Shown: piece by piece, positions 1,961 through 45,016 of the stretch
Layout of the letters: each line of letters opens with the position of its first letter
Numbering within the stretch: position 1 is the first letter of the stretch
Program-made: the position numbers and the translations under genes
Notes under the pieces: generated by a model
Databases searched by the model: none
What the model was told of the DNA's origin: nothing
What the model saw: the letters and a program-made list of their open reading frames with translations, nothing else
NCBI GenBank assembly: GCA_041666545.1
Contig: JBAYGS010000005.1
Span: forward strand, 18,842 to 82,841
DNA length: 64,000 nucleotides
From: Minisyncoccota bacterium
GTDB lineage: Bacteria; Patescibacteriota; Minisyncoccia; Phycocordibacterales; JBAYGS01
Direction of reading: 5' to 3'

Positions 1961-1962
1961 TC

Positions 1963-2409: not shown

Positions 2410-2500
2410 ATTTGACCAAATAACCCCACTATGTTATCATATTTTTAGAAAGAAGTACTAATTCTGTAGTTCGACAATTCAACTTCAAAAGAAGGGCTGT

Positions 2501-2956: not shown

Positions 2957-3050
2957 TCAGTTTCAATCAAACCCCCAAGCGCAAGCGCGGGGGTTTTCTT
3001 TTGACATCCGAGACAGAAGGAGTAGTATCAAAAACAGAAAGGGCTTCATT

Positions 3051-3392: not shown

Positions 3393-3481
3393 TCCAAATC
3401 ACAAATCCCCGATTTCGGGGATTTTTCTTTGACAGAAAGACATGGGAGCGTAGTATATGAACCGGAAAGGAAACTCGTCTC

Positions 3482-3820
3482 ATGAAAAGAATCGAGGCCG
3501 TAATTCAACCGCACACTTTGGATGATGTGAGAAAGGCGCTCATCGCAATCGGCGTGGAAGGCATGACGGTTTTTGAGGCCAAAGGCTTCGGCCGACAACA
3601 CGGCCACACCGAAATCTATCGGGGTAGTGAATACGATTACCATTTCGTGCCGAAAATTTATATCTTGTTGATGGTCAAAAAGTCCCAAGTGAAACAGGTG
3701 GTCGCGACTATTCGCGAAGCAGCCAACACCAAAAAAATCGGCGCCGGCAAAATCTTCGTCTCTCCCCTCGAGGACGCGATCCGAATTCGCACCAACGAAG
3801 ACGGTGAAGGGGCTCTTTAG
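3482..3820 (+). CDS. glnB: Nitrogen regulatory protein P-II (GlnB/GlnK family)
   Basis: MKRIEAVIQPHTLDDVRKALIAIGVEGMTVFEAKGFGRQHGHTEIYRGSEY...GKIFVSPLEDAIRIRTNEDGE matches E. coli GlnB closely. The T-loop GFGRQxGHTExYRG and Tyr51 are conserved. Confidence 0.85.
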   Translation: MKRIEAVIQPHTLDDVRKALIAIGVEGMTVFEAKGFGRQHGHTEIYRGSEYDYHFVPKIYILLMVKKSQVKQVVATIREAANTKKIGAGKIFVSPLEDAIRIRTNEDGEGAL

Positions 3821-3832
3821 AAAGGAAACCTC

Positions 3833-4420
3833 ATGACTGCCGAAAAACTGCTTGAGACAATCGAAATCTATCAGAATTTTTTTGTCGAGTCGGGTTTCAA
3901 AAAGGCCGGGCAACTGCACGACGAGCTCCCGGCCTTCCCACAGGTGAGGACGGCGGAGGCGCCATTTAGAGAGGAAGGAGCGATTCCTGAAGAACTACTT
4001 GAGGCAATCGAAACCTACCGGAAATTCTTCGTCGAATCAGGCTTCAAGAAAACTGAACACCTGCACGACGAACTTCTAACCAGCGACCAGTCCGGGTTCG
4101 AACACTGCCACGGAATGCTGGACCGAATGGTCAAGTTTGTTCAAGAAGGGCGGTTGGAAAAAGCTTTTCGCTGGCTCGGCTTTATCCAAGGTTTCCTCTG
4201 GTCAAGGCGAGTTTTCGCCCTAGCCGAACACAATGACAAGGCCGGATTTGAGCACTGCCACGGCATGCTGGACCCAATGGTTAGATTCGTTCATGAAGGA
4301 AGGTTGGAAAAAACTTTCCGTTGGCTTGGCTTTATCCAGGGTTTCCTCTGGGCCCATCGGATCTACACCTTGGCCGAAATCAAAGACCATAATCGGTCCA
4401 AAGGTCTGCTTGACCCTTAG
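3833..4420 (+). CDS. Hypothetical protein built from two pairs of internal tandem repeats (FFVESGFKK...LHDEL x2; GFEHCHGMLDxMVxFVxEGRLEKxFRWLGFIQGFLW x2)
   Basis: Direct tandem duplication is visible at both the protein and DNA level (3840-3920 vs 3990-4070; 4085-4230 vs 4235-4385). The gene starts 13 nt after the glnB stop. Confidence 0.5.
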   Translation: MTAEKLLETIEIYQNFFVESGFKKAGQLHDELPAFPQVRTAEAPFREEGAIPEELLEAIETYRKFFVESGFKKTEHLHDELLTSDQSGFEHCHGMLDRMVKFVQEGRLEKAFRWLGFIQGFLWSRRVFALAEHNDKAGFEHCHGMLDPMVRFVHEGRLEKTFRWLGFIQGFLWAHRIYTLAEIKDHNRSKGLLDP

Positions 4421-4479
4421 GCAAAGTAAAACCCCTCACCTGCATGCAGGGAGGGGTATTTTCTTGTCCGAAAGAAACG

Positions 4480-4935
4480 CTAGGTGCGCTCTTCGGAGTG
4501 ACGACAATCCGGATTGGTGCATTCGTAATAATGAACTCTCGAACCGCAACCGGGCGAAATGCCACCAGATTTCATCGGAGCCCAACAGACTGCACAAATT
4601 TGAGTAGGACCAGCGAGTGGCTTGGTCACAATCAGCTTACAGTGTTTACACACCTTGGCAGTCAAGACGGACTCGCCAGGCTTCCGAACCCGATGTTCCA
4701 GAAACTGGTGACAGCACTTGCTTTGGATCTCGTGGATCAACTTGAAGATTCGGTGCCAGCGGAGAAACAAACTTTCGGCGGTCCCCCGCAGGAGATCGAG
4801 CTCGCCGCGAATTTGCGAATCAGTCGGAAAATTTTCCGGACCGAGAAAGGCGCGGGTTTGTTCCAACGATTGGAAGTAGGCCCAGACCCATTTAAGTCGT
4901 TCCAGCTGTTCTTCGGAAATTTCAGTTTCATTCAT
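4480..4935 (-). CDS. Hypothetical Cys-rich (zinc-ribbon-like) protein
   Basis: 151 aa with CKHCKL...CAVCW...CTNPDCRH clusters. It was chosen over the overlapping plus-strand ORF 4444..4992 on motif coherence only. Confidence 0.35.
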   Translation of the reverse strand: MNETEISEEQLERLKWVWAYFQSLEQTRAFLGPENFPTDSQIRGELDLLRGTAESLFLRWHRIFKLIHEIQSKCCHQFLEHRVRKPGESVLTAKVCKHCKLIVTKPLAGPTQICAVCWAPMKSGGISPGCGSRVHYYECTNPDCRHSEERT

Positions 4936-6480: not shown

Positions 6481-7851
6481 ATGCAAACTGAAGCACCAGC
6501 AAAACCGGTACAAACCGGCATGAAGATTGTCTTAAACGGCGGAGGCACCAGAATGGACTCGGCCACCATACCAATCCAGTGGGGCTTTTCCGAAGCTGTC
6601 GCCAAACGCAAGCCGACTCACCTACTCATCATTGAGCAGACCGAGTACGAGGCAAAGTGCGAGGAAAAGACATTTCGGGGAGATTCGGGACGTCGAAGAA
6701 TTGTCCCAGTCTCAAGGGTGATTGAGTACCTCCAGATTTATTCGCCCGGCAAACACCGAATTGCCGTCGTCGCTCTGTCGAACAGCCAGGAAGAAAATTC
6801 CTACGACCCGCCTGAAAAGCAGGCGGCGATATTCCGACAAAATTTGGAAGGCCTGCTCGTAACATGCAGAAACAGTTATGAATACCGCACCAGTCTTACC
6901 TGGCGAGCGATTCTCGAGCTAGCAAACGATGACAGCAAGAGCGAATGGATCTGTGTCGGCGCCGCAGTCGCGGAAATTGAAGTCCCGGAAAATCTCTTCG
7001 CCAAGGTGAGTGAGAATCCGGTCATGAAATTTCTCTACCGGTGCGCCAACCGTTGGTGCTCAAAGGGCCCGCGTGACCAATGTGAATATCGCAAGCGCCT
7101 TTTGTTTTACGCCTTACCGAAAACCCTCATCTGGCTTATCGGCTGGGCCTTCAGTCTCACGGTCGGGACAATTGTGTCTGCAGTTGCGATAAGTCTCCGC
7201 CTACTCGTCCTCTATCTCGGCTGGAGACCGGCCGGAATTTTGGAGAATATCTCAATGTTCTTCTCGAGGCCGATCCTCGATTGGACATTGGGAGATATGA
7301 ACATCAATCGGGGCGATAACTACAAATATCGTGTCTGGGAAGTCGACACGAGTTATCCGTACAAAGTTCAGGCTACGATGCCGGTAACCGGGATCGAGGC
7401 AACCTTGATACTGCTCGCTGGCTTAATAAGCTGGAACATCTTGCGGAATGTTGAGATGTCTCATGTCACCAGGAGCTTCAATCTAAGTTTTGCCACAATT
7501 TTCGTTGTGGCATTCCTGGCCATCATGATCTGGCGGTTTGTGCCAGTAATGCCGGGTTGGGATAAGTTGGGCCGTTGGTACCGAAAATACCGACAAGACC
7601 GCTTGACCATCAAGACCCTACAGAAGGAACAGAAGAAAAAGGCCGCTCAAGAGGCTGCCAAGATGGAACTGGCCAAACCTGATCCTTACACCAACTGGCT
7701 GATGAAAGAGATGTCTCTTAAATCGGTGCCAGCCAAGGTTGACACCAGTCACCTGCCAAAACCGCTGACCATCACTGGCCAAGCGAGCAAGGTGGTGCGT
7801 GTCACCTTCTGGGGCGCCAAAACTCGGGTGTGCAAACCTTACGCGAGGTAG
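6481..7851 (+). CDS. Hypothetical protein: a roughly 200-aa soluble N-terminal region, then four or five TM helices and a charged C-terminal tail
   Basis: 456-aa ORF with no recognisable catalytic motif. A terminator hairpin at about 7875-7905 (GGCGGAAGCTTCGCTTCCGCCGTTTTTT) follows it. Confidence 0.45.
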   Translation: MQTEAPAKPVQTGMKIVLNGGGTRMDSATIPIQWGFSEAVAKRKPTHLLIIEQTEYEAKCEEKTFRGDSGRRRIVPVSRVIEYLQIYSPGKHRIAVVALSNSQEENSYDPPEKQAAIFRQNLEGLLVTCRNSYEYRTSLTWRAILELANDDSKSEWICVGAAVAEIEVPENLFAKVSENPVMKFLYRCANRWCSKGPRDQCEYRKRLLFYALPKTLIWLIGWAFSLTVGTIVSAVAISLRLLVLYLGWRPAGILENISMFFSRPILDWTLGDMNINRGDNYKYRVWEVDTSYPYKVQATMPVTGIEATLILLAGLISWNILRNVEMSHVTRSFNLSFATIFVVAFLAIMIWRFVPVMPGWDKLGRWYRKYRQDRLTIKTLQKEQKKKAAQEAAKMELAKPDPYTNWLMKEMSLKSVPAKVDTSHLPKPLTITGQASKVVRVTFWGAKTRVCKPYAR

Positions 7852-7910
7852 GCACTCAAGGTTCTTCAAAGACCAACGGCGGAAGCTTCGCTTCCGCCGT
7901 TTTTTAATTC

Positions 7911-10299: not shown

Positions 10300-10340
10300 A
10301 AGTGGATAAAGCCGGTTACGGCTTTATCCACTTTTTATTC
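10300..10340. terminator. Bidirectional rho-independent terminator (perfect 13-bp stem GTGGATAAAGCCG/CGGCTTTATCCAC with T-runs on both sides); it terminates ndk on the minus strand
   Basis: The hairpin is flanked by TTTTTATT on the plus strand and TTTTTGTG on the minus strand. Confidence 0.6.
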
Positions 10341-10378
10341 GTGTCATTCGTCTCCATTCGTGTATTTGTGTCGTGTTC
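10332..10378. repeat. Stop-codon-abutting repeat TTCGTGTCATTCGTCTCcATTCGTGTATTTGTGTCGTGT
   Basis: Four copies, all in one orientation and each ending at the stop codon of a minus-strand gene: 10332-10378 (ndk), 14655-14700, 19294-19335 (rplO) and 23436-23478 (rplN). Confidence 0.6.
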
Positions 10379-14500: not shown

Positions 14501-14536
14501 AACAAAATTATACCGCGTCTTGGCGCGGATTCAAAA

Positions 14537-14652
14537 GTTGTTAAGAACCTTTACGAATAAGGCACACGAATAAAGTACGCGAATAGCGAAACCACGAATA
14601 CGCACACACGAATAAAAAGACAGTTGAGAACCCTTACGAATAGGTCGTGCGG
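14537..14652. repeat. Two inverted copies of the TTATTCGTGTGCCCTATTCGTAAGGGTTCTCAACT family flanking a phased array of five ACGAATA motifs at about 11-nt spacing
   Basis: acgaataaggc acacgaataaag tacgcgaatagcg aaaccacgaatacgc acacacgaataaaaag. Copy 1 spans 14537-14575 and copy 2 spans 14621-14652. Confidence 0.55.
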
Positions 14653-14711
14653 ATATTCGCGTCATTCGTCTCAATTCGTGTATTTGTGTCGTGTGCCGAA
14701 GTATTAAATAC

Positions 14712-20428: not shown

Positions 20429-20430
20429 AT

Positions 20431-20470
20431 GTTTTTATTCGTGTGCCCTATTTGCAAGGGTTCTTAACTT
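20431..20470. repeat. Intergenic repeat TTATTCGTGTGCCCTATTtGcAAGGGTTCTtAACT between rplR and rpsE
   Basis: Six members of this family: 14537, 14621, 20431, 21443, 22241 (inverted) and 25956. Confidence 0.65.
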
Positions 20471-20491
20471 AAAATTTCGATTACAATCTCA

Positions 20492-21430: not shown

Positions 21431-21442
21431 GATGATAATTAA

Positions 21443-21480
21443 TTTATTCGTGTGCCCTATTCGTAAGGGTTCTCAACTAT
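21443..21480. repeat. Intergenic repeat TTATTCGTGTGCCCTATTCGTAAGGGTTCTCAACT between rpsH and rplF
   Basis: Consensus copy of the six-member family. It abuts the rpsH stop and lies 13 nt from the rplF start. Confidence 0.65.
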
Positions 21481-21869
21481 TACCAGATTTTAAATAAAAC
21501 TTCGCCACCGACTTTTTCTTTCTTGGCCTCCTTATCGGTCAAAATTCCTTTTGGGGTCGAGAGCACGATCAAGCCTAAACCGCTCTTGAAAGATCGGATT
21601 TCTTTGGCGCCCTGGTAAACGCGCTTGGACGGTTTGGAGACACGGGCCACATCGTTGATTCGAGGTGTCTTACCTTCGGCATATTCGACTTCAGCCTCCA
21701 AAATCTTGTGGTTATTCTTGCGCTTCTTGGCAATTGATTTGAGAAAACCGTTCTTAACCAAAATATCTGCAATTGACTCCTTAATCGCCGAATGAGGTAC
21801 CACAACACTTCCCCGACCTGCGAGGCCGGCATTCTTAACTTTGATTAGAAAATCAGCGATTGGATCCAT
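21480..21869 (-). CDS. rpsH: 30S ribosomal protein S8
   Basis: MDPIADFLIKVKNAG... is canonical S8. Confidence 0.9.
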   Translation of the reverse strand: MDPIADFLIKVKNAGLAGRGSVVVPHSAIKESIADILVKNGFLKSIAKKRKNNHKILEAEVEYAEGKTPRINDVARVSKPSKRVYQGAKEIRSFKSGLGLIVLSTPKGILTDKEAKKEKVGGEVLFKIW

Positions 21870-21987
21870 AAAATAATTTAAAATTGAAAGGTCAAAATGG
21901 AAAATTGCAATTTAAAATCTAAAATTAGATTCTGAAAATTATTCAATTTTGCATTGTCATTTTTCATTTTGAGATTTACATTTTCCA
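21870..21987. repeat. AT-rich roughly 118-bp repeat between rpsZ and rpsH that ends with the exact 30-mer AATTTTTCATTTTGAGATTTACATTTTCCA
   Basis: The 30-mer is identical at 29349-29378. Related copies lie at 39925-39990, 61842-61897 and in the 5' leader of the four-helix-bundle gene (62264-62290). Confidence 0.6.
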
Positions 21988-22173: not shown

Positions 22174-22240
22174 AATAAATTAAAAAAGCTTGCAAAAGCT
22201 TGTCCGCGTATACTAGCAAACCAAGAAGAAGAATGCAAGG

Positions 22241-22280
22241 CAGGTTGAGAACCCTTACGAATAGGGCACACGAATAGGCC
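22241..22280. repeat. Inverted-orientation copy of the TTATTCGTGTGCCCTATTCGTAAGGGTTCTCAAC family, followed by a GGTATA-rich segment (22292-22325)
   Basis: GGTTGAGAACCCTTACGAATAGGGCACACGAATAGG. Confidence 0.6.
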
Positions 22281-23421: not shown

Positions 23422-23474
23422 ATATGTATTCTTAGATTCGTGTCATTCGTCTTAATTAGTGAATTGGTGTCGTG

Positions 23475-23846
23475 TTATACGATTTCAGCCGCCAAAGAAG
23501 CGATTTTCTGGTAACCCTTTTCAGCCAATTCTCGAGGAATCGGTCCAAAAACACGGCCGGCAATCGGATCCATCTTGCCTTTTTCCAAAATCACCACAGC
23601 ATTCTCATCGAAACGGACATAGGAACCGTCCAGGCGTCTTAGGGCCTTGGTCTGACGAACCACTACCGCCTGCAAGACATCCTTTTTCTTTACCGCCTTT
23701 CTTGGTTCGGCTTTCTGAACTGACAAAACCACCTGGTCACCGATTGAAGCGTAGCGCTTTTTGGAGGCACCGAGCACCTTGAAAATGCGTCCGATTTTAG
23801 CCCCGGAGTTGTCGACGATTTTCACAATGGTGCGTGGTTGAATCAT
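23475..23846 (-). CDS. rplN: 50S ribosomal protein L14
   Basis: MIQPRTIVKIVDNSGAK... is canonical L14. Confidence 0.9.
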   Translation of the reverse strand: MIQPRTIVKIVDNSGAKIGRIFKVLGASKKRYASIGDQVVLSVQKAEPRKAVKKKDVLQAVVVRQTKALRRLDGSYVRFDENAVVILEKGKMDPIAGRVFGPIPRELAEKGYQKIASLAAEIV

Positions 23847-25565: not shown

Positions 25566-25955
25566 CTAACTGTTTCCTTTGCTCTTAATTTGTTTCTTGG
25601 TTTTTGGTGTTTGGTTATTCTCCAGTTCGCTTAGAACTAGGGTAATATGGCTAGTTCGCTTATTGATACCGGAAGCGCTACCTCGAGCTCGCGGCATGAT
25701 TCGCTTTAAAATCACCCCAGCATCGACAGTGACACCTTTAACCTTAAGATTCTCGGCGGACAGGTTTTGACTATTCTTGGCATTGGCTACCGCTGACATT
25801 AGCAATTTTTTAATCGGGGCGCTAGCTCGCTTGGCCAAAAAATCCAATTCAGCAATCGCCAAATTAACCGGCTTGCCTTTGATCAAATCGGCAACAAGTC
25901 TAACCTTACGTGGTGATTGTCGGTAATTATTCAGTTTTGCGGTAATTGTTGTCAT
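25566..25955 (-). CDS. rplV: 50S ribosomal protein L22
   Basis: Sequence and position. Confidence 0.85.
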   Translation of the reverse strand: MTTITAKLNNYRQSPRKVRLVADLIKGKPVNLAIAELDFLAKRASAPIKKLLMSAVANAKNSQNLSAENLKVKGVTVDAGVILKRIMPRARGSASGINKRTSHITLVLSELENNQTPKTKKQIKSKGNS

Positions 25956-25992
25956 TGTTTTATTCGCATGCCCTATTCGTAAGGGTTCTTAA
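25956..25992. repeat. Intergenic repeat TTATTCGcaTGCCCTATTCGTAAGGGTTCTtAACT that exactly fills the gap between the rpsS stop and the rplV start codon
   Basis: The start codon of rplV (25953-25955) and the stop of rpsS (25993-25995) directly flank the element. Confidence 0.65.
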
Positions 25993-26334
25993 CTATTTCT
26001 TAGCTTCGGTTGAAGCTTTAGCAGCCTGCGCAGAGGCAATCTCGGCTTGCTTCTTGGCAGCCTCGAGTTCCTTCTGCATCTTACCGCCGTGCTTAACGAA
26101 CTTGCGGGTTAAAGAAAATTCGCCCAATCGATGGCCAACCATGTCTTCAGAAATCAAAACTTCAATAAAATCCTTGCCATTATGAACGGCAAACTTAAAA
26201 CCAACCATTTCTGGAGAAATCTGGCAGGCCCGAGACCAAGTCTTAATTGGTTCAGACTTTTCAGGACGCTTGCCTGCTATCTTCTTTAGCAGCCTTTCGT
26301 CGACATATGGTCCTTTCTTAAGCGATCGTGTCAT
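25993..26334 (-). CDS. rpsS: 30S ribosomal protein S19 with a Lys/Ala-rich C-terminal extension
   Basis: [19 protein letters not shown]... is canonical S19. Confidence 0.9.
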
Positions 26335-26550: not shown

Positions 26551-26596
26551 ATAGAGTTGGAATTTGGCAACAAACAAAAAACGAATAGGAGACAAC

Positions 26597-26968
26597 ATGA
26601 ACAATGTACACATCGCCCCCGGAAGCGTCGGCGCATCGGTTGGTTTTCGAGCCGGCCTGGCAACAGAAATGGCCGCGAAGATCCTGCAGCAGGACGCGCG
26701 AGACAAGCCTATCAAGGAATACCTTTTGAATACCGCCCCACCTTCAGTTCGCGAATGGATTCACGAAAATGGGGTGATTGATGATCTTTTCCATTATGGT
26801 TTCTCCAGCCGTCAGATGCGATTTGGTGAACCTTTGAACGACTCGGCGCATGTCTTGGGGGTCTGCGCCCAACTGGCAAAGGCCTGGAAAGGCCTGGTCC
26901 GGGTCACGGTGAGCAGCAACCCTGAACCACACCGTGTGGAAATCTTCTTCAGCGCCACACGACTTTAG
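26597..26968 (+). CDS. Hypothetical protein (123 aa) encoded on the opposite strand between rpsS and rplB; GC-rich relative to its surroundings
   Basis: ATG at 26597 has a canonical SD, unlike the neighbouring r-protein genes. It has its own promoter and the terminator GGCCCGCGACAGCAGTCGCGGGCCTTTTTATTT at about 26985-27020. Confidence 0.5.
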   Translation: MNNVHIAPGSVGASVGFRAGLATEMAAKILQQDARDKPIKEYLLNTAPPSVREWIHENGVIDDLFHYGFSSRQMRFGEPLNDSAHVLGVCAQLAKAWKGLVRVTVSSNPEPHRVEIFFSATRL

Positions 26969-28467: not shown

Positions 28468-29256
28468 TTATTTGGTTGCGGTTTTAGCTTTCTTGGCTGC
28501 AACTTTCTTGGTTGGCTTAGTTTTGACAGTTTTTGCTTTACCTTTAGTCTCTTTTATTTCTGCAGACTTGGTCTCCGCCTTTTTAGCAGCCTTGCCTTCA
28601 AGTTTGCTTAGAAGAAAAGCCAAACTGTTTTCGGCGCCGACGATTATCAAATGCTTGTAGGAAAGGACATCCACCGGATTGATGTTTCGAACATTATCAA
28701 ACTTGATATTGCTCAAGTTGCTGAAACTCTTGGAAAGATTCTTGTTGGTTTCATCGCTTACAATGTAAGCCGAGTTATTATTCTTTCTCAAGACATTCTC
28801 AAAACCCTTGATTTTGGAGAAATTGGACAAAGTTTCAACAGCCACCCTGGTTTTTGGCTCGCTGATTGAAAGACTTTCGGTAAACAAGACTTCACCTTCC
28901 TTGTTTTTGCGGGACAAGATGGTGAAAAGAGCCTTAACCTTGGCCTTCTTGTTGATTTTACGAGAAAAATTCTTGTCGTTTCGAGGACCGTGAGCCACGC
29001 CACCACCTACCCAAATCGGAGAACGAGTTGAGCCGTGTCGGGCTCGGCCGGTACCCTTCTGTTGCCATGGCTTCTTGCCACCACCACGAACTTCACCTCG
29101 GGTTCTAGTGTGAGCAACCGGAGTTCTTTGGCTGGTCTCAATCGAAGTCACGACTTGATGAACCAAGTCGCCATTCCAAGGCAAGCCGAAGACGCTCTCC
29201 GGAAGTTTCAACTTTCCTGATTCTTTGCCGCTTTGATTGTAAATTGTTGTCTCCAT
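28468..29256 (-). CDS. rplD: 50S ribosomal protein L4
   Basis: [24 protein letters not shown]... is canonical L4, here with a Lys/Ala-rich C-terminal extension. Confidence 0.85.
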
Positions 29257-29261
29257 GATAA

Positions 29262-29386
29262 TAAATCAAAATTAAAATCTCAAAATTTAAAATGACAATG
29301 TAAAAGTCAAAATTGGATTCGGAAAAGTTTTAAATTTTAAATTATAATTTTTCATTTTGAGATTTACATTTTCCATTTAGTTGGAA
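29262..29386. repeat. AT-rich roughly 125-bp repeat between rplC and rplD, homologous to 21870-21987 and ending in the same 30-mer
   Basis: AATTTTTCATTTTGAGATTTACATTTTCCA at 29349-29378. The minus-sense strand contains a TTATAAT box. Confidence 0.6.
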
Positions 29387-29989
29387 TTATCCGATAATTT
29401 CAACTAAAGTTCCTCGTCGTCCTGGGATGGCACCGGAAATCGCGATGACATTTTCGGCCGCATTAACCTCGACAATCTTCAAATTCTTAATGGTGATTCG
29501 ATCGCTACCCATTCGACCGGCCATTCTCATACCTTTTGGAACCTTATTTCGGAGACCACCGCCGATTGAACCCGGCTCGCGCTCGGAGTGCTTCTGGCCG
29601 TGAGATCGAGGACCACCTTTAAAACCGTGTCGCTTCACAACACCCTGAAAGCCCTTACCCTTTGAAACTGCCGAAACGGTGACCAAATCCCCGGCCGCAA
29701 AAGTTTCCGGCTTAATCTCGTCACCAACTTTCAAATCTTTAACGTCTCTAAATTCTTTAAGCAAAGCGAACTTTCCGGAAGTTTTTAGGTGGCCGAGTTC
29801 AGCCTTGGTCAAATTCTTCTCATGCTTGGAACCAAAACCAACCTGAACAGCATCATAACCGTCTTTTTCAGAAGTTTTGACTTGAGTGACGATAACCGGA
29901 CCGGTCGAAATAAGGGTGACAGGGGTCACTTTGCCGGCATCAGACCAAACCTGGGTCATATTTAGTTTTGTACCTAAGATAAATTTCAT
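29387..29989 (-). CDS. rplC: 50S ribosomal protein L3
   Basis: MKFILGTKLNMTQVWSDAGK... is canonical L3. Confidence 0.9.
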   Translation of the reverse strand: MKFILGTKLNMTQVWSDAGKVTPVTLISTGPVIVTQVKTSEKDGYDAVQVGFGSKHEKNLTKAELGHLKTSGKFALLKEFRDVKDLKVGDEIKPETFAAGDLVTVSAVSKGKGFQGVVKRHGFKGGPRSHGQKHSEREPGSIGGGLRNKVPKGMRMAGRMGSDRITIKNLKIVEVNAAENVIAISGAIPGRRGTLVEIIG

Positions 29990-30108
29990 TCCGATTAGAG
30001 ATTGGAAATGGAGGCCATTTCCTAGCCTTTAGCAACTAAAGCCATTCAATAGAGTTTGTCGCGTATAGAGATTAAACTGTAATTCTTAACTGTCTTATCT
30101 CTAACGGA
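29990..30108. mobile_element. MITE-like element of about 119 bp with terminal inverted repeats CCGaTTAGAGAT / ATCTCTAACGG, abutting the rplC start codon
   Basis: Same TIR family (CCCGTTAGAGAT) as 53546-53677, 54391-54508 and the short hairpin at 40036-40094. Confidence 0.6.
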
Positions 30109-30308
30109 ACTTAAATCCTTTCCTTTATTGAACACGGCACATGGCCGGCGGTTCGCGAACTTCCTTAAACATCCTTGCAGAAGAGAATTCCGCAATGGGA
30201 CAAGGTTAGCAAATCCTCCCAAAAAAGTAAAGGGCCCACACGAATCGGATTCGCGTGGGCCGGAAAAACGGCTTCAAGTATGCGAAGGGCAGGATTCTGA
30301 GCCAATAG

Positions 30309-30761
30309 CTAACGGCAAGCCGAAGAAATGGCCTCCTGAGCATAGCGATCAAGATCAACTTCCTTTTTGAGCTTTTCTCCTGGGATTTCCGGGCTCCATC
30401 GAAACATTCTGAACCCCTGTCTCGCCAAAACCAGACACAAGGAATCGAGAACAATAAGCGCTCGTGAGTTTCGCCACATCTTCCACTCTTCACTCAATTC
30501 AGGAACATCGAAGGCCTGGCTGCGTGTCGGATTGACCAGGATCAATTTTTCAACAACTCGAAACTCCTTTCTTGGTAAAAATCGGATAGCCGACCGGACA
30601 TCAGCCTTGCTAAGACACACAAATTCCCGCCACCTGGCGCGACCACGACCAATGTTTACATGAGCCGGCGGACACCAGTTGTGATCAAGACAAATCGAAA
30701 ATCCAGCCATCAACCGCCAACCGTCTAAATCAGACAGACGGATCAATTTATTTGCTTTCAC
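30309..30761 (-). CDS. Hypothetical protein (150 aa), followed on its strand by a terminator hairpin
   Basis: The hairpin GGGCCCACGCGAATCCGATTCGTGTGGGCCC plus a T-run at 30232-30262 lies downstream on the minus strand. No family was recognised. Confidence 0.45.
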   Translation of the reverse strand: MKANKLIRLSDLDGWRLMAGFSICLDHNWCPPAHVNIGRGRARWREFVCLSKADVRSAIRFLPRKEFRVVEKLILVNPTRSQAFDVPELSEEWKMWRNSRALIVLDSLCLVLARQGFRMFRWSPEIPGEKLKKEVDLDRYAQEAISSACR

Positions 30762-30890
30762 ATTTTCCTTTCTCTTTAAGTGAATCCTCTCTCGTCATAC
30801 TATTCATCCATCTTATACTTGTCAAATATAAACCCTGTGGTAGTCTAAAAAAGGACATCCAGTTCTAAAACATCAAATGAAAGGCGAAAT

Positions 30891-31679
30891 GTGAGTAAAG
30901 AAAATGAGGTTGAAAGGAAAGACCGATTCATCGACCTGTCACTCCCCCAATGCGGCCCGGTTCTTTATGGCTACGGCAGTGGCGCCTACCATATCAAATA
31001 TCGCGGAGAAATCCTCGTTGATTTTCTCGGTCGCCTCCGAAAAAAGATGGAGAAACTCGCGTCAGAACTCAACCAAGCCTGGAAAGCGCTCGACAAAGCC
31101 AACCCGGAAAGCCCGAGGAACCGCGACATCATTCAGAAGATGCTCCAAGCCGGTTTTTGGGCCTACGCCCAGACTTTGGAAATCCAAATCTATAACAAGG
31201 AGTGCGTCTACGGAATAACCAGCCCCCTTCACGACATCATCGTCAACCCGCTTGAGAATATCTATATGAGGTGTTTCGCGGCCGCCCACATGTGGGGTGA
31301 CCTGGACGAAAAGATGCTCGGACTCAACGGGCTTTTGACCGACTTCGAGGTCAACGGCGGAATCGATCACAAAACCGGAGACAAGGGCAATGGTTTCGGC
31401 AAATCCTTGCTCGATTACTACATCGCTTACTTCGCTCAAAACCAGCGCGGAACCGAAGCTTACTTGGCCTTCGGCGAACTGATCGATGCCCTGTTTCAAA
31501 TGACAAAAAAACGGTACCCGAAAATTCTGACGGAACTCGCTAAAGCAATCCGCTCGAGAATGACCGAGACTTACTACGGCTTCGGTAACAAGGAGGTCAC
31601 TTCCCCGGCTAAAGTGGCGCTCCTTTCGAAGCTTGAAGCAATCACCCAACCGTACGAGGAAAAGGAAAAGGCCGCCTAG
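30891..31679 (+). CDS. Hypothetical protein (262 aa) with an apparent GTG start, divergent from 30309..30761
   Basis: No family was recognised. It contains an R-x5-H motif (RCFAAAH) that could be HEPN-like, but this is weak. Confidence 0.45.
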   Translation: MSKENEVERKDRFIDLSLPQCGPVLYGYGSGAYHIKYRGEILVDFLGRLRKKMEKLASELNQAWKALDKANPESPRNRDIIQKMLQAGFWAYAQTLEIQIYNKECVYGITSPLHDIIVNPLENIYMRCFAAAHMWGDLDEKMLGLNGLLTDFEVNGGIDHKTGDKGNGFGKSLLDYYIAYFAQNQRGTEAYLAFGELIDALFQMTKKRYPKILTELAKAIRSRMTETYYGFGNKEVTSPAKVALLSKLEAITQPYEEKEKAA

Positions 31680-31785
31680 GCCAACCAAATCCCACCGGTC
31701 GTCACCAGACGACCGGTTTTTTATTGTTAACAAAATTCGAGGAGTAAAATATTGACAATGTAATTACATTGTATATACTGAACTC

Positions 31786-32052
31786 ATGACCACATTACAA
31801 ATTCGCATCGACGAAAACACCAAAAAGAGGGCTAAAAAAACTCTCAAGGACCTCGGGCTGGATATTTCCTCCGGAGTGAAACTATTTTTGGAGCAAGTGA
31901 TAACCACCCAATCTATACCCTTTTCCGCCGTTACTCCGGCAGGCTATAAGCTTCGCAATTGGAAGCAACTAAAAATAGAAATAGCGGAAGCAAAAAAAGG
32001 TAAGGGGTACACGACGGCAGAAAAGATGCATGCTGATATTTTTAAAAAATAG
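31786..32052 (+). CDS. dinJ: RelB/DinJ-family antitoxin (ribbon-helix-helix)
   Basis: MTTLQIRIDENTKKRAKKTLKDLGLDISSGVKLFLEQVITTQSIPF matches the DinJ N-terminal consensus. Confidence 0.7.
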   Translation: MTTLQIRIDENTKKRAKKTLKDLGLDISSGVKLFLEQVITTQSIPFSAVTPAGYKLRNWKQLKIEIAEAKKGKGYTTAEKMHADIFKK

Positions 32053-32061
32053 TGGCATTCA

Positions 32062-32340
32062 ATGTACTCTCTTAAACCCACGGCAAAATACAGAAAATCC
32101 ATTAGGAAACTGGCAATGTCTGGCCGATTTAGGATCGGAGACTTAGACAAAATTCTCAACCTGCTTGCTTCTGGTAAAACACTTGAACCGAAGTATCGAA
32201 GCCACCCGCTTAACGGAGAATATGCCGGTTGTTTTGAGTGTCATGTGAAAAGTGACCTACTGCTTATTTACGAAATCGACAAATCAGAACGAGAATTAAC
32301 TATTATTGATATCGGTAGCCATTCGGATTTATTTGAGTAG
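32062..32340 (+). CDS. yafQ: YafQ-family toxin (RelE/ParE superfamily mRNA interferase)
   Basis: KYRSHPLNGEYAGCFECHVKSDLLLIYEIDKSERELTIIDIGSHSDLF matches YafQ. It lies 9 nt after dinJ. A terminator (AAAAACCGCCGAAAGGCGGTTTTTTG) follows at 32341-32372. Confidence 0.7.
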   Translation: MYSLKPTAKYRKSIRKLAMSGRFRIGDLDKILNLLASGKTLEPKYRSHPLNGEYAGCFECHVKSDLLLIYEIDKSERELTIIDIGSHSDLFE

Positions 32341-32450
32341 CAAAAAACCGCCGAAAGGCGGTTTTTTGATCTTACCGCCCCGACGAAATTAAGAAATTTG
32401 TCGGGGTTAAGAAAATTGGCCCCTTACTTTTCAGTAAGAGGCTCAATTTT

Positions 32451-32843
32451 CTACAACATTTTCACATCAATATTCACGCCAGATGGGAGCGAAAGATTGG
32501 TCAAAGCTTCGATAACTTTCGGAGCCGGATTAATGATATCAATCAATCGCTTGTGAACTCGCATCTCAAATTGTTCTCGCGCATTTTTGTAGACGAAAGC
32601 TGAACGGTTGACCGTGTACTTCTTAATCTCAGTCGGCAATGGTACCGGGCCAAGCATTTCGGCATCGAAACGCAAAGCGGTGTCCATGATTTGTTTAATC
32701 GAGGCATCTAGAACCTTGTGTTCGTAGGCCCTGACCCGAATTCGAAGCTTTCCAATGCCCTCTTCTTTGTCCTTCTTGGCAACTGCCTTTTTGACAGCTT
32801 TAGGCTTGGCGACTTTTTCGGTTGTTTTAGTAGTTTTAGGCAT
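32451..32843 (-). CDS. rpsJ: 30S ribosomal protein S10 with a Lys-rich N-terminal extension
   Basis: ...GKLRIRVRAYEHKVLDASIKQIMDTA...VPLPTEIKKYTVNRS... is the S10 core. Confidence 0.85.
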   Translation of the reverse strand: MPKTTKTTEKVAKPKAVKKAVAKKDKEEGIGKLRIRVRAYEHKVLDASIKQIMDTALRFDAEMLGPVPLPTEIKKYTVNRSAFVYKNAREQFEMRVHKRLIDIINPAPKVIEALTNLSLPSGVNIDVKML

Positions 32844-32879
32844 GATTTTAACTAATAACTTTCGCTATTAGTCCGCTTA

Positions 32880-34067
32880 TTAAGCAATGATCTTGGTGAC
32901 CACGCCGGCGCCGACAGTCTTACCACCCTCGCGGATAGCAAAGCGCTGTTTGGCTTCAAGAGCGACCGGAGCAACCAACTTGACAGTGAAGGTGACAGTG
33001 TCGCCTGGCATAACCATTTCAACACCTTCTTTCAAGGTCACCTCACCGGTGACATCAGTGGTTCGCACATAGAATTGCGGTTTGTAGCCTTTGAAGAAAG
33101 GAGTGTGTCGGCCACCTTCCTCCTTTTTCAAGATGTAAACTTCAGCCTCGAAGTCAGTGTGAGGAGTGACAGAACCCGGCTTGGCCAAGACCTGACCACG
33201 GTGCACATCTTCCTTCTTAGTACCTCGCAAGAGTACTCCGGCGTTGTCGCCAGCCATACCTTCAGCAAGAGATTTGTTGAACATTTCAATACCAGTGACG
33301 GCAGTCTTGGCGGTCGGCTTGATACCGACGATCTCAACTTCCTCACCGACTTTGACCTGGCCTCTTTCGATACGACCGGTGACAACAGTACCTCGGCCTT
33401 CGATTGAGAAGATGTCTTCGATTGGCATCAAGAATGGTTTATCGATTTCTCGAACTGGCAACGGGATGTAGGTATCGAGAGTCTTAACCAATTCCAAGAT
33501 GGCCTTTGACCACTCATCGTCAGTGCCAGTAGCTTCCAAAGCTTTAAGACCGGAACCGCGAATAATTGGTGAGTCATCATAGCCGTGCTTCTTCAAAAGA
33601 TCGCGAACTTCCTCTTCAACCAAGTCGATCAACTCCTTATCAGGAACCATATCGCACTTGTTTAGGAAAACGATGATTTTTGGCACACCGACTTGCTTGG
33701 CCAAAAGAATGTGCTCTCGGGTTTGAGGCATCACGCCGTCAGTTGCGGCTACGACCAAGATAGCGCCGTCCATTTGAGCGGCACCGGTGATCATGTTTTT
33801 AATGTAGTCAGCGTGGCCCGGGGCGTCGATGTGGGCGTAGTGACGAGTTTCTGACTCGTATTCAGAGTGGTGAATCGAAATGGTAATACCGCGAGCCTTT
33901 TCTTCAGGGCTCTTGTCCAAGTCACCGACTGAAAGAGTCTTCTTGGCTAGACCTTTTGCGTGAAGTACGCGACTGATAGCCGCAGTCAAAGTACTTTTGC
34001 CGTGGTCAACGTGGCCGATAGTACCAACGTTAACGTGTGGCTTTGAGCGATCAAATGCTTCTGCCAT
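32880..34067 (-). CDS. tuf: Elongation factor Tu (start taken at [11 protein letters not shown])
   Basis: Canonical EF-Tu throughout: [22 protein letters not shown]. Confidence 0.95.
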
Positions 34068-34264
34068 AATATTTTTAGTTTTGCCTCCCAAAATTAAGCG
34101 CGCGAGAACGTCTACTTAATTTTAAGAATAAAAACCTTAGATTAATAATTAATAAATTTCCCTGTTTGATTAACCTCAAACAAAACAACCGGCGAACCGG
34201 TAAGGATGCGTAAAACGCGTCTGGGTATAATAACAAAGAGCTTAAGAAGATGCAATGGTCGAGC

Positions 34265-35503
34265 TTAAATAGACCCCTTGGAGGTTAAGAGACGCAGAGT
34301 CTCCGGACCGATTCCGCCAAATTCAGCCTTTAAACCGTTGGCTAATTGAAAGGCTACTAGGGCCTTTTCTGTGCAACTCAAGAAATTTCCAGAAATGGGG
34401 CAGTCATGCTTGTCCTTCCCTGCTGGTGGGTAAAAGAGTTTGGTCGCCAGAGCCGCTTGGAGCGAAAGAACAGCCGGACTCCACTTTGTCCCACTCTCGA
34501 CACTCGTAAGCTCTGGAACCAGAAGCACGGAAGGTGGCAGACTGGCAAATCTGTCAGTTTTGAAGAAATCATTGAGCCCTAGATAAGTCTGGTAGGCCAA
34601 ATCCTTGATTGCCAGACTGCGAACCTTAGCATCTAGAAATCTCGGCTCATAGATATAGCCATACTCGATTAAAATTCCGGCCGGATCAAGCGTGTTGAAA
34701 GCACCGACAGCAATCAATTCCTGATCCGAGACAATCCCCCGATCTTCCTTTGGTAAATTGCTCCTCGCATAATAATTATTCAAGTGGTTAAAAATTTTTT
34801 GAGCCACGGCCTGACTGGCTTTTGAATTTGAATATTGACCTTCCGGTACATAGACCGCAAAGCCTTCATATTCACCCGGTGCCGACTTTGGCCGGCCGGC
34901 ATAATCATTGAAATGGATGCTCAAAACCAAATCGGCATAAGATTGATTGGCCCAAAGATTGACACCATAAAGCCTCGTGGCCGTTTCCGAGTCAACCGAA
35001 TTATGATAAACCCCACCTAAATTGCTACTAATTAGACCTTCGTCAACCAGTTGGCCCATTTCAGATTTTTTCCGGTTCAAAAAACCCGAGATGACATCCT
35101 TTTGACTGACTAGAAACTGGGAAAAAGCCGGATTGTAGCCATTTTTGTCTCTGATTAGAATAATTTCAAATTCTTTATCGTCTGCAAACATGGCCGACAA
35201 ATCTTGAGCCAATTCCAAATTCATATCGGCCTCGCGAACACCCTTAAATTCGGTCCCACCAGAATTGTTGTCATGGCCGGGAACAATTATGATTCGAATC
35301 GGCCGGGCGCCCGCCTTAGATTTGTCATACCTAGCAAACAAAGCCTCTTCGGTAATACTGTCCGAGAAAAAAACCGAAGCCAAAAAGTTTTTCGGATTAA
35401 GAGTCGACACTAACTTACCAAAACTGCCGGGCGACAAAGACCAAAACAGAAAAAATAAAGCGGCGGCCATGACCAAAAATGCGACAGACCGTTTTAATTT
35501 CAT
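34265..35503 (-). CDS. Secreted or membrane-anchored N-acetylmuramoyl-L-alanine amidase (Amidase_3-like) with a C-terminal peptidoglycan-binding domain
   Basis: N-terminal signal/TM, then IIVPGHDNNSGG, which is GHGG-like for Amidase_3. A C-terminal ...TEKALVAFQLANGLKAEFGGIGPETLRLL matches the PG_binding_1 motif. Confidence 0.65.
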   Translation of the reverse strand: MKLKRSVAFLVMAAALFFLFWSLSPGSFGKLVSTLNPKNFLASVFFSDSITEEALFARYDKSKAGARPIRIIIVPGHDNNSGGTEFKGVREADMNLELAQDLSAMFADDKEFEIILIRDKNGYNPAFSQFLVSQKDVISGFLNRKKSEMGQLVDEGLISSNLGGVYHNSVDSETATRLYGVNLWANQSYADLVLSIHFNDYAGRPKSAPGEYEGFAVYVPEGQYSNSKASQAVAQKIFNHLNNYYARSNLPKEDRGIVSDQELIAVGAFNTLDPAGILIEYGYIYEPRFLDAKVRSLAIKDLAYQTYLGLNDFFKTDRFASLPPSVLLVPELTSVESGTKWSPAVLSLQAALATKLFYPPAGKDKHDCPISGNFLSCTEKALVAFQLANGLKAEFGGIGPETLRLLTSKGSI

Positions 35504-37924: not shown

Positions 37925-38248
37925 TCACAAATGAACAGCCCGATCCTTGAAGGCTGACTCAAAAATGAGCCGACCTAGACTGCCACCAAACTCGAGCCCC
38001 TCTCCGGCGGTTATCGCCCCAGAAGCAACCAGCTTGTGGAGCTCCTTGGACAGAATCACTGTCACCTCTTCTGCCAAAGTGACAGCACTCTCGGCTTGAC
38101 ACATTTTGCGAACCTTGGCGACCAATCCTTTGACCGGATCAACCGCCTCGGCGCCAAGAACCATCTGCCTCAGAAGTTGGTCCGCGATTTCCTGAAACCT
38201 TTTTCGTTCCATAGCATTCCTTTTGTTTTTGCTTGTCGATGCAGGCAA
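37925..38248 (-). CDS. Hypothetical protein (107 aa), GC-rich
   Basis: ORF only. It sits between fusA and rpsG. Confidence 0.3.
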   Translation of the reverse strand: MPASTSKNKRNAMERKRFQEIADQLLRQMVLGAEAVDPVKGLVAKVRKMCQAESAVTLAEEVTVILSKELHKLVASGAITAGEGLEFGGSLGRLIFESAFKDRAVHL

Positions 38249-38250
38249 CC

Positions 38251-38628
38251 CTAGGAGATGCCCTCGTAGGCCAGTCCGCAGACCATTCTGACATCATCAC
38301 CGCTACCGAGCAGTGTTTTAATGGCGAAACCGACAAGACCTACGGCTGTGCCAAAACACATCGCCGCTACAAGGGCGACCAGTGGCACCGCAAAGGACAC
38401 GGTCCAATCGGCAGATGTCTGACAATTAACGGCAACATACCCGGCGAGCCATCGACTAACGATGAAGAGCGTGCCCGCCGACAGTAGACAGACTGTGGTT
38501 GCCAAGGGTCGCCGCCACCACAGATTGTCCTTTCCGCTCACTACATCGGCCCAGCCGCGAATTATCGCGACCATCACCATAATGCACATGACGGTGACAG
38601 CAACCGGTTTGATCATTTCGATGTTCAT
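38251..38628 (-). CDS. Hypothetical membrane protein (125 aa, three or four TM helices), GC-rich
   Basis: Hydrophobic ORF 2 nt upstream of 37925..38248. Confidence 0.4.
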   Translation of the reverse strand: MNIEMIKPVAVTVMCIMVMVAIIRGWADVVSGKDNLWWRRPLATTVCLLSAGTLFIVSRWLAGYVAVNCQTSADWTVSFAVPLVALVAAMCFGTAVGLVGFAIKTLLGSGDDVRMVCGLAYEGIS

Positions 38629-39924: not shown

Positions 39925-39990
39925 ATTTAATGGAAAATGGAAATCTCAAAATGAAAAATTATAAGATCTCAAATTAAACTAAAATTAGCC
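39925..39990. repeat. AT-rich repeat (inverted copy of the TTTTCATTTTGAGATTTcCATTTTCC family) upstream of rpsL; contains a TTATAAT box in the rpsL sense
   Basis: GGAAAATGGAAATCTCAAAATGAAAAATTATAAGATCTCAAA. Confidence 0.55.
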
Positions 39991-43129: not shown

Positions 43130-45016
43130 CTAACCGATTAGGATTTCTCGATCAATAATCCCCTTCTTGGCGGCAATCGGCTCCGAAGTGTAAACCGGCA
43201 AATATGAGCCATCGTCATTTTTCTTCTCAAACTTTAGAATGTAAGTGCCAGTCTTATCGGGAGCTAACAAGAAATACCGCCCAAACTGATCGGTCACCTT
43301 CTGCATCACTTCAATATCGGTGCCAGAGTCAAAAACATGAACCAAGGCAAACGAGAGTGGCAGGCCAGTGTTCTTATCTTTCACCACTCCATAAGGTTTG
43401 TTGCCAAGACCGAAGACACGAAGCAAAAGTAAGACGATATAAAGAGCAAAAATTCCGATATTGTAAGGCTGTGGCGCGGCAAAGAGCGCAATCACAGCAA
43501 CGACAAAACCAAAGACGAAAAGCCAGTCGGTAATCTTGCGAATCAAACGATCATGTCTCGAGTAAAAATTCATCAGACCCTTATCTTTCTTGGCAAATTC
43601 ATTCCAGTCGAATTTTAGTGGGTCAAGCGGAATGTTCCGAGTAATCACCGCCCCCAGATTATCGACGGTAAGTTGTTCGCCGAAATAAAGGTCACCGTAA
43701 AGTTCATCCTTACCTCTTCCGGCCAAACGATCCGACGGAAAGACATAGTTGGTTTTGTTGGCCACGATTCGATAAGTGCCAGGACTTAAAAGAAAACCAT
43801 AGCGACCGTCGAGGTCGGTGATCGAGGTGTCGATTTCTTTACCATTCATATCATAGAGAACTACATAAGCCGGATCGAGCGGTTGTTTGGTGACACTGTC
43901 ATAGACAGTACCCCAAGGCAAGCGCCGTTTTTTCAGATTGAAAGCGGCCAGGAGCAGACCCCAGAGTCGCAAAGGCAAAAGGAAAATCTCCGAAATGGAC
44001 ACCGGGTTTACGAACAGGGCCGAAGCCGTCACCAGACCGCCGCCGATTGCACCGGCGGTTGCCACGGTCTTGGTCACCACCGAACCGGTCGGGGTGTTGA
44101 CGATGGCTTTGACATTTTGCGCCACCGCCGTCGCTGTCTCCACAACAAATCTGGCGCTATCTTGGACTTGAGAAATTAGATCTTGAAAAATCGCCCCTCC
44201 GCCTCCGCCGCCACCTGATGCACCACCCGCACCAACACCAGTACCCTCACCACCACCGGGAGAAGTAATGCCACAGTCCGTGCATGGTGGAGGTGGGGGC
44301 GGAGGAGGTAAAACAACTTCACACCCCACACACTCTTTTGGTGGTGGAGGAGGCAGAGACGGAGGTGGGGGTGGTAGTGAAGGTGGGGGTGGAAGTATTG
44401 TTCCGCCACCACCGCCACCTCCAGCAGGATCCGCTTCATCATTATCACCTGCGGAAGAGCAGCCTGGGTCATTCGGATAATCGATCTTGCTGTCGCTATC
44501 ATTGTCTGCACTATCATTACAGGCTATCCGATTGGCGGGCGGACGCCAGTCAGTATTAACTTTGTAATTGGTCGCCAAACAAGAATTGTCGGTCGAACAA
44601 TTAAAGATAATCCAACCAAGATTTTGACTCCAGGCATAGCCGGAAAAATCACCGGAGGAATTTATCGTGACTCCGCCGTTAGTCGGAGCAAAATTTATCC
44701 AACCGGTCACTTCGCCCCAGGCATAGCCGGAAAGTGTGCCACTGCTGTTTACCACCCCACTACCCGTCGGGGCCAAATTGATCCAACCGACAGTCTCACC
44801 CCAGGCATAGCCGGTTAAAGCCGAGTCAGTAATGTGCACATTCCCGTTAGTAGCGCCAAAATTGATGTAGCCGTATGAAGTATTCTCAAACCGAGCTTTG
44901 TCATTTGCTGAACTGCTCACTGTCCCATCGGTCGTCGATGCCGAAGCCAAAACCGGCAAAAAAATTCCCAGAACAATCGCGATGAGTTTTAATTTTTGAA
45001 TTTTAGTCATAATCAA
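43130..45016 (-). CDS. Secreted modular protein: signal peptide, SGYAWGExxGWINFAPT repeats, a poly-proline/Gly linker with CxxC, a TM segment and two CarboxypepD_reg-like (prealbumin-fold) domains
   Basis: TGYAWGETVGWINLAPT / SGYAWGEVTGWINFAPT / SGYAWSQNLGWIIFNC repeats. PPPPSLPPPPPSLPPPPPKECVGCEVVLPPPPPPPPC linker. WGTVYDSVTKQPLDPAYVVLYDMNGKEIDTSITDLDGRYGF and YGVVKDKNTGLPLSFALVHVFDSG...GRYFL are CarboxypepD_reg-like. Confidence 0.55.
   Translation of the reverse strand: MIMTKIQKLKLIAIVLGIFLPVLASASTTDGTVSSSANDKARFENTSYGYINFGATNGNVHITDSALTGYAWGETVGWINLAPTGSGVVNSSGTLSGYAWGEVTGWINFAPTNGGVTINSSGDFSGYAWSQNLGWIIFNCSTDNSCLATNYKVNTDWRPPANRIACNDSADNDSDSKIDYPNDPGCSSAGDNDEADPAGGGGGGGTILPPPPSLPPPPPSLPPPPPKECVGCEVVLPPPPPPPPCTDCGITSPGGGEGTGVGAGGASGGGGGGGAIFQDLISQVQDSARFVVETATAVAQNVKAIVNTPTGSVVTKTVATAGAIGGGLVTASALFVNPVSISEIFLLPLRLWGLLLAAFNLKKRRLPWGTVYDSVTKQPLDPAYVVLYDMNGKEIDTSITDLDGRYGFLLSPGTYRIVANKTNYVFPSDRLAGRGKDELYGDLYFGEQLTVDNLGAVITRNIPLDPLKFDWNEFAKKDKGLMNFYSRHDRLIRKITDWLFVFGFVVAVIALFAAPQPYNIGIFALYIVLLLLRVFGLGNKPYGVVKDKNTGLPLSFALVHVFDSGTDIEVMQKVTDQFGRYFLLAPDKTGTYILKFEKKNDDGSYLPVYTSEPIAAKKGIIDREILIG

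Follow-up and report, generated by a model that had tools for sequence, protein, structure and literature searches.

A probable mosaic of three transcription units between the ribosomal protein genes rpsJ and rplC of a Minisyncoccota bacterium

In the genome of a Minisyncoccota bacterium (GCA_041666545.1), the genes for the ribosomal proteins S10 (rpsJ) and L3 (rplC) are separated by an interval of 2,461 nucleotides (nt) holding four open reading frames (ORFs), named orf150, orf262, dinJ, and yafQ, the last two forming a toxin-antitoxin (TA) pair. This interval (29990-32450) lies in a 64-kb window of contig JBAYGS010000005.1 (positions 18,842 to 82,841), whose minus-strand gene order is tuf (32880-34091), rpsJ, the interval, rplC, rplD, rplW, and rplB. 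The window shares 99.99% identity, over 20 kb, with an 83.7-kb contig from a metagenome (ENA ERZ27249449, k141_901122). According to the data presented here, the interval is best read as a mosaic in which three transcription units (orf150, orf262, and dinJ-yafQ), each of them autonomous, are located at a recurrent operon break point, a reading to which we give a probability of about 0.65. An initial annotation made from the sequence alone had already reported that the two ribosomal genes are separated by about 2.4 kb; Pfam confirms the identity of the two genes, and the coordinates which it gave for the four ORFs agree exactly with the ORF list.

The recurrence of the break is revealed by the comparison of the S10-L3 junction in the 41 closest loci encoding both proteins, with L3 identities of 52-67%, which represent relatives at the level of family or order and not strains. 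About 19 of these loci have a gap of at least 200 nt between the two genes, and eight have one of at least about 700 nt; in two further loci S10 is not encoded within 8 kb upstream of L3. In loci from outside the Candidate Phyla Radiation (CPR) the gap is 9-336 nt. The junction is thus variable, in line with the initial annotation: none of the 80 related L3 loci examined contains the specific four-gene block, relatives have other selfish or accessory cargo there, unrelated between genomes, and a homologue of orf262 occupies the junction in another locus (L089). One example of such cargo is that of L016 (Patescibacteria UBA2135), where a 93-amino-acid (aa) protein of the ParE_toxin family overlaps its upstream 103-aa partner (7311-7894). 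Another is that of L028 (Candidatus Nomurabacteria, metagenome-assembled genome contig JACKGI010000003.1), whose junction (678-4753) holds a complete-looking diversity-generating retroelement that consists of a Fib_succ_major target (1709-2515), bAvd (2578-2934), and a reverse transcriptase (3346-4518), with a template-like repeat of the C-terminus of the target at about 3120-3338. The protein encoded at the junction of L004 matches sigma-70 region 4 weakly and below the threshold, and ORFans are also among the cargo.

A promoter-like site and a terminator could be assigned separately to each of the three units, which indicates their autonomy (Table 1). All these calls are matches in consensus scans, and they include the two terminators already annotated, that is, a hairpin after orf150 and a perfect inverted repeat after yafQ. 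Scans of Pfam and NCBIfam identified no integrase, transposase, or recombinase domain in any ORF of the interval, a repeat scan found neither direct repeats nor terminal inverted repeats at its borders, and no tRNA genes were found in the 64-kb window. The interval therefore lacks both the recombinase or transposase and the bounding repeats that define a mobile cassette.

The only part of the interval to which a function can be assigned is dinJ-yafQ, as the initial annotation had recognized. Judged by its sequence, this pair is an ordinary, plasmid-type, mobile addiction-type type II TA module, whose toxicity and neutralization are predicted. Besides the family matches given in Table 1, YafQ reaches 63.4 bits against TIGR02385 (2.1e-17; cut-off 27.9) and 60.9 bits against the narrower TIGR00053, under the cut-off of 87.25 of this model. 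Its best relatives of solved structure, Helicobacter pylori HP0892 (7.7e-17) and Escherichia coli YafQ, align with it end to end, and in the alignment with HP0892 (4nrn/2otr) the His of an HPL motif, the His of an ECH motif, the subsequent Asp, and the sequence GSHS-LF are all conserved. We take these His and Asp positions to be the catalytic ones described in the YafQ literature. Homologues of YafQ appear in 1,252 plasmid records from many genera, with a best identity of 47%, and DinJ matches the DinJ structures 9lew_A and 4q2u_A. Both genes have the same orientation, with the antitoxin first and the stop codon of dinJ (32052) 9 nt ahead of the ATG of yafQ (32062). The presumed DinJ operator is a perfect 18-nt palindrome, ACAATGTAATTACATTGT (31755-31772), overlapping both the -35 hexamer and the promoter spacer. 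The transcript is probably leaderless, because only 6 nt lie between the end of the -10 hexamer and the ATG of dinJ (31779-31788); no Shine-Dalgarno sequence precedes this codon. The codon scores of dinJ (0.041) and yafQ (0.008) are atypical compared to the mean of the host genes (0.177, standard deviation 0.05).

The protein encoded by orf262 belongs to a small, lineage-restricted family of proteins, predicted to be all-alpha, which are not HEPN nucleases. A word-indexed search yielded one homologue, and the use of the family profile raised this number to three proteins; it was an exhaustive HMMER search of 1.84 billion proteins with a two-sequence profile which exposed the family, with 39 cluster representatives at E<=0.001. 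Most members are single-domain proteins of 250-290 aa, most clusters are singletons, and the two members that have names are both from Paceibacterota. Alignment of 27 members shows a sole invariant residue, G136, and near-invariant residues at W90, A91, L113, L121, E122, D151, F152, Y191, and P210. The orf262 protein matches nothing in Pfam, NCBIfam, PADLOC, or the PHROGs, and the 27 members gave nothing consistent in profile searches of PDB sequences or in scans of Pfam, PADLOC, and the PHROGs, the PADLOC scan returning three unrelated single matches with E-values of 0.013 or weaker. The AlphaFold2 model, built from only two sequences, is all-alpha with eight helices and a mean confidence (pLDDT) of 65, and has no match at E<=0.001 in the PDB or BFVD. 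The top structural matches (14-3-3, translin, and designed helical bundles), with TM-scores of 0.1-0.4, were dismissed as meaningless. Searches of IMG/VR viral contigs and phages revealed no relatives of orf262, those of plasmids no meaningful match, and no paralogue is encoded elsewhere in the window. With a codon score of 0.125, orf262 comes close to the mean of the host genes.

It had been proposed that orf262 carries a weak HEPN-like motif, RCFAAAH, and this R-x5-H sequence is indeed present in helix 3. The likeness to HEPN RNases, which hold an Rx4-6H motif, is limited to this sequence and to the predicted all-alpha fold, since neither motif residue is constant among the members: R126 is replaced in some by K or N, and H133 by W, Y, M, or V. 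No HEPN match from Pfam was obtained in any of the 27 members, and orf262 was consequently rejected as a HEPN nuclease.

About 12 independent genomic contexts are available for this family. On the 40-kb contig L089, a homologue with 42% identity occupies the space between rpsJ and rplC, antisense to both as in the window, and neither orf150 nor the TA pair is present. In L001, 75 nt separate the end of the homologue (48% identity) from the 3' end of rpsJ, with no TA pair in between, and the flank on the orf150 side is short. As the homologues next to rpsJ in both loci lack the TA pair, the lineage of the window would have gained dinJ-yafQ in the space that separates orf262 from rpsJ. In L096 (1477-3474), the order is KhpA, the orf262 homologue, and TrmD, all co-directional with gaps of ~130 and 85 nt, and in L090 (5893-8356) it is the orf262 homologue, rpsP, a 114-aa ORF, and KhpA. 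The usual operon order is rpsP-khpA-rimM-trmD, and no RimM match from Pfam was recorded in either locus; in the 64-kb window, rpsP, KhpA, and TrmD are not encoded. Other neighbours are a tRNA_bind protein (L084), RNase J (L086), a class II aminoacyl-tRNA synthetase (L092), and a DEAD helicase (L093/L094), as well as MurG/M23 (L091), DUF218 (L085), MatE (L088), and rubrerythrin (L095). No partner gene is conserved across these contexts, and no defence gene was found in them. A separate observation in L096 is a 196-aa ORF adjoining a tRNA-Tyr gene (3672-4262), whose GLYWGEGNK motif may resemble that of LAGLIDADG homing endonucleases.

Table 1. Features of the rpsJ-rplC interval and its borders. 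Positions are those of the 64-kb window; a dot in the strand column marks features on both strands or without orientation.
Feature	Position	Strand	Description
rplC	29387..29989	-	Ribosomal protein L3, 200 aa; Pfam Ribosomal_L3 7.3e-16; downstream border; opens the rplC-rplD-rplW-rplB run
Untranslated stretch upstream of rplC	29990..30232	-	243 nt; local hairpins; predicted pairing over the rplC start region
Segment bounded by inverted repeat	30010..30336	.	20-nt arms, 85% (30010-30029 / 30317-30336); core GGAGGCCATTTC, 12 nt perfect
orf150 terminator	30233..30261	-	Intrinsic (predicted); 13-bp stem, then CTTTACTTTTTT; 48 nt after the stop codon
orf150	30309..30761	-	150 aa, GTG start, AAGGA motif like a ribosome-binding site upstream; Arg/Trp/Cys-rich, pI 9.8
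Divergent overlapping promoter-like sites	30792..30825	.	Predicted; orf150: TTGACA-17-TAGTAT (30825-30797, -), 10/12; orf262: TCGTCA-16-TATACT (30792-30819, +), 9/12
orf262	30891..31679	+	262 aa, GTG start; antisense to the ribosomal protein genes
orf262 terminator	31694..31717	+	Intrinsic (predicted); 10-bp stem with 7 GC pairs, then TTTTTATT
dinJ-yafQ promoter	31752..31779	+	Predicted; TTGACA-16-TATACT, 11/12 consensus positions in the promoter scan
dinJ	31786..32052	+	RelB/DinJ antitoxin, 88 aa; PF04221 1.4e-12, 47.8 bits (cut-off 22.4); TIGR02384 6.5e-18, 64.7 bits (cut-off 45.65)
yafQ	32062..32340	+	RelE-superfamily YafQ-type toxin, 92 aa; PF15738 1.4e-27, 96.2 bits (cut-off 30)
Bidirectional intrinsic terminator	32341..32368	.	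Predicted; CAAAAAACCGCC-GAAA-GGCGGTTTTTTG; perfect 12-nt inverted repeat, A and T runs on both sides
Terminator-like hairpin	32419..32442	-	Directly 3' of the rpsJ stop codon; 10-bp stem and weak T tail in the consensus scan; putative function
rpsJ	32451..32843	-	Ribosomal protein S10, 130 aa, Lys-rich N-terminal extension; Pfam Ribosomal_S10 5.4e-31; upstream border

In the proposed mosaic, the three units would have accumulated where the tuf-rpsJ and rplC-rplD-rplW-rplB runs are already uncoupled in many Paceibacteria. The orf262 gene would be the older resident, a stand-alone gene of housekeeping neighbourhoods, and dinJ-yafQ looks like the most recent arrival. By analogy with the characterized YafQ/RelE toxins, YafQ would be a ribosome-dependent mRNA endonuclease, while DinJ would neutralize it and repress the operon at the palindrome overlapping the promoter. 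Transcription of tuf-rpsJ would end at the bidirectional terminator, which the convergent yafQ transcript probably shares. Expression of the rplC-rplD-rplW-rplB run would then depend on a promoter within the insert, of which the strong predicted one of orf150, with read-through of the orf150 terminator, is the most plausible. This is the best guess for the expression of rplC because no promoter match of at least 9/12 exists between the orf150 terminator and rplC (30232-29990), where the best match is 8/12.

Several points weigh against this reading. The promoters and terminators that separate the units are predicted from consensus matches, and the overlapping divergent promoters of orf150 and orf262 could indicate that both genes form a functional pair in this genome. 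The recent acquisition of dinJ-yafQ and orf150 is a soft conclusion, because short genes give noisy codon scores. L006 and L010, which encode comparably similar L3 proteins, have a tight S10-L3 junction. The closest homologue of orf262 (57% identity, in L085) is not next to rpsJ, and none of the 80 related L3 loci contains a family member, so that the history of orf262 would involve repeated loss or some mobility, which fits an old resident less comfortably. To this must be added that the family offers no more than those 12 or so contexts.

The initial annotation saw the layout as that of a single small defence or abortive-infection island, in which orf150 and/or orf262 would act as sensor or effector, together with DinJ-YafQ or stabilized by it. 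The junction is variable, and the ParE-type TA pair of L016 and the retroelement of L028 are cargo typical of variable or defence hotspots; moreover, both orf150 and orf262 lack a match to housekeeping families, they are divergent with overlapping promoter-like sites, and the codon usage of orf150, dinJ, and yafQ is atypical. Nevertheless, none of the four proteins matched a defence model of PADLOC-DB 2.0 at E<=1 and the 27 family members showed no consistent match to these models, the HEPN motif is not conserved, and viral contigs, phages, and plasmids hold no meaningful relatives of orf262. The separate predicted promoter and terminator of each unit and the missing border repeats also argue against an island, as do the homologues of orf262 elsewhere, which lack the TA pair (and orf150 where the flanks are known) and are all found among housekeeping genes. 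A defence island is therefore considered very unlikely, and a defence function of orf150 or orf262 is not supported. A different proposal is that orf262 is a translation or ribosome-biogenesis factor specific of Paceibacteria, whose position in the ribosomal cluster is meaningful, which would be compatible with a mosaic for the other genes. Its homologues neighbour rpsJ or rplC in three lineages (the window, L001, and L089), one stands between KhpA and TrmD in the usual slot of rimM, and another precedes rpsP and KhpA; with the tRNA_bind, RNase J, aminoacyl-tRNA synthetase, and DEAD-box helicase loci, about 7 of the 12 contexts are related to translation or RNA, compared to roughly 3 expected in a small CPR genome (binomial p ~0.03, an estimate of our own and not the result of a tool). 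This lean, only marginally beyond chance by such a rough estimate, is suggestive, and the near-native codon usage of orf262 points in the same direction. On the contrary, orf262 is antisense at the S10-L3 junction and hence is not co-transcribed with the ribosomal genes, several contexts (MurG/M23, DUF218, MatE, and rubrerythrin) have no relation to translation, and CPR genomes are so dense in translation genes that chance adjacency is common. Besides, the protein shows no structural or sequence likeness to known RNA- or ribosome-binding folds, and the rarity of the family, along with its absence from the 80 related L3 loci, would be odd for a core factor. According to these data, such a role for orf262 is judged unlikely. 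Little credence is likewise given to a broader conjecture, by which the family would be an unrecognized translation or ribosome-assembly factor restricted to Paceibacteria and, separately, the S10-L3 junction a lineage-wide hotspot that captures selfish elements.

With regard to orf150, this ORF is either a small gene, gained recently or arisen de novo, or one that encodes no functional protein at all. It is a singleton ORFan that matches only itself among 5.8 billion proteins. Like orf262, it finds no match in Pfam, NCBIfam, PADLOC, or the PHROGs, in agreement with the initial annotation, which could recognize no family for either protein. It has no relative in the PDB or among phages, no meaningful plasmid match, and no homologue or paralogue elsewhere in the window or in any of the fetched loci. 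Two candidates were rejected: the prim-pol ORF904 of pRN1 (phmmer E 0.14), aligned in three fragments of which none is significant alone, and a Burkholderia choline dehydrogenase (tblastn E 0.3), attributed to chance. Structure prediction, which had been suggested for both proteins, provided no significant fold match for orf262 and, in the case of orf150, a model that is unusable for fold searches because of its pLDDT of 43. It is possible, although doubtful, that orf150 is non-coding, and that 29990-30790 serves the rplC operon as a long transcribed leader or as a promoter region, perhaps with the decayed remnant of an insertion between the arms of the 20-nt inverted repeat. Consistent with this proposal are the singleton status and the low pLDDT, a codon score (-0.003) far under that of the host genes, and an Arg/Trp/Cys-rich composition typical of spurious ORFs, with an R/(R+K) of 0.67 and a W+C content of 7.3% that are among the most extreme of the 59 ORFs of the window. 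In addition, no strong promoter is predicted ahead of rplC on the minus strand other than the one before orf150, and the inverted repeat overlaps the end of the ORF. Against it, the frame of orf150 scores best of the six, its GTG start is preceded by an AAGGA motif, a strong terminator follows the stop codon as expected for a discrete gene, 150 open codons are many for chance at 47% GC, and the NCBI pipeline annotates the ORF (WCT25_04365, a hypothetical protein assigned to a 'Candidatus Paceibacterota bacterium').

The stretch ahead of rplC (29990-30308) had been annotated as a miniature inverted-repeat transposable element (MITE), a designation that was not confirmed. It is single-copy by BLAST against the 64-kb window, no target-site duplication is evident in the flanks of the segment bounded by the inverted repeat, and the right arm of this repeat (30317-30336) falls within the last codons of orf150. 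The segment 30010-30336 resembles MITEs and repetitive extragenic palindromic (REP)-like repeats in its imperfect 20-nt inverted repeat, and the annotated stretch differs from them in being single-copy in the window and in the overlap with a coding end. The alignment of both arms scores 25, compared to a mean of 13.7 in shuffled sequences (standard deviation 2.2, maximum 25). The fold of 29975-30350 has a z-score of -4.4; by our own estimate, the terminator hairpin of orf150 is probably responsible for most of it. No conserved ribosomal leader RNA is claimed for the 243-nt untranslated stretch, because it could not be aligned with the equivalent region of L089 and its fold is marginal compared to shuffled sequences (z-score -1.67); Rfam returned only noise at E<=1 in 29000-33500.

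Other repeats were observed in the window. A multi-copy, AT-rich palindromic repeat of ~116-125 nt, which is MITE- or REP-like and distinct from the stretch discussed above, appears at 29260-29375 and at 21872-21987 (between rplE and rpsH, 81% identity), with partial copies near 39929-39978, 61840-61889, and 62226-62285. The first copy fills the rplC-rplD spacer, which measures 130 nt versus 14-40 nt in several relatives. An intergenic repeat of ~45 nt (TTATTCGTGTGCCCTATTCGTAAGGGTTCTCAAC) is found in six copies and both orientations (14527-14572, 14610-14655, 20429-20472, 21438-21481, 22231-22276, and 25954-25997), and another of 41 nt (TATTCGTGTCATTCGTCTCCATTCGTG...) in three (10336-10376, 14654-14694, and 23435-23475); several of these copies are inside the ribosomal cluster, and they may be regulatory or REP-like. 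The repeat scan of the window also detected a tandem duplication of 150 nt (4085-4384, two copies with 77% identity) and a repeat of ~49 nt in three copies spaced by 84-87 nt (44595-44814). Further ORFs also stand between conserved genes of the same contig. These are two ORFans without Pfam match between rpsG and fusA, of 121 aa (38251-38616, minus strand) and 95 aa (37925-38212, minus strand), a protein with Amidase_3 and PG_binding_1 domains between fusA and tuf (34265-35503, minus strand), and an antisense 134-aa ORFan, also without Pfam match, between rplB and rpsS (26564-26968, plus strand).

The str-S10-spc supercluster, usually held as near-immutable and used as a block of phylogenetic markers, is repeatedly interrupted in Paceibacteria, and a literature search returned nothing specific on insertions at the S10-L3 junction of CPR bacteria. 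These interruptions matter for operon-based binning, for annotation, and for the regulation of ribosomal protein synthesis in CPR bacteria after the operon has been split. In organisms in which many genes have no assigned function, the orf262 family, which has no Pfam model and whose neighbourhoods lean to translation, represents a lead.

Among the known systems, E. coli DinJ-YafQ (4q2u/4ml0) and the H. pylori pairs HP0892-HP0893 and HP0894-HP0895 share with the pair described here the antitoxin-first operon, with a 9-nt spacer in this case, similar motifs, family scores over the cut-offs, and a toxin that aligns along its full length. A palindrome also overlaps the predicted promoter here, as in autoregulated TA operons. 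Contrary to the known DinJ-YafQ/RelBE modules, this pair is located inside a ribosomal protein cluster of a CPR bacterium and its mRNA is probably leaderless, and its identity with the best plasmid homologues is only 42-47%. Integration hotspots between conserved core genes are known for defence islands in Enterobacteria and Pseudomonas. The S10-L3 junction likewise exhibits constant flanks, rpsJ and rplC, with a cargo that differs among relatives (TA pairs, a retroelement, sigma-70 region 4/helix-turn-helix-like proteins, and ORFans). In contrast to those hotspots, it has no integrase, tRNA, or att repeats, it lies inside the str-S10-spc supercluster, and one part of its cargo, orf262, is common across lineages.

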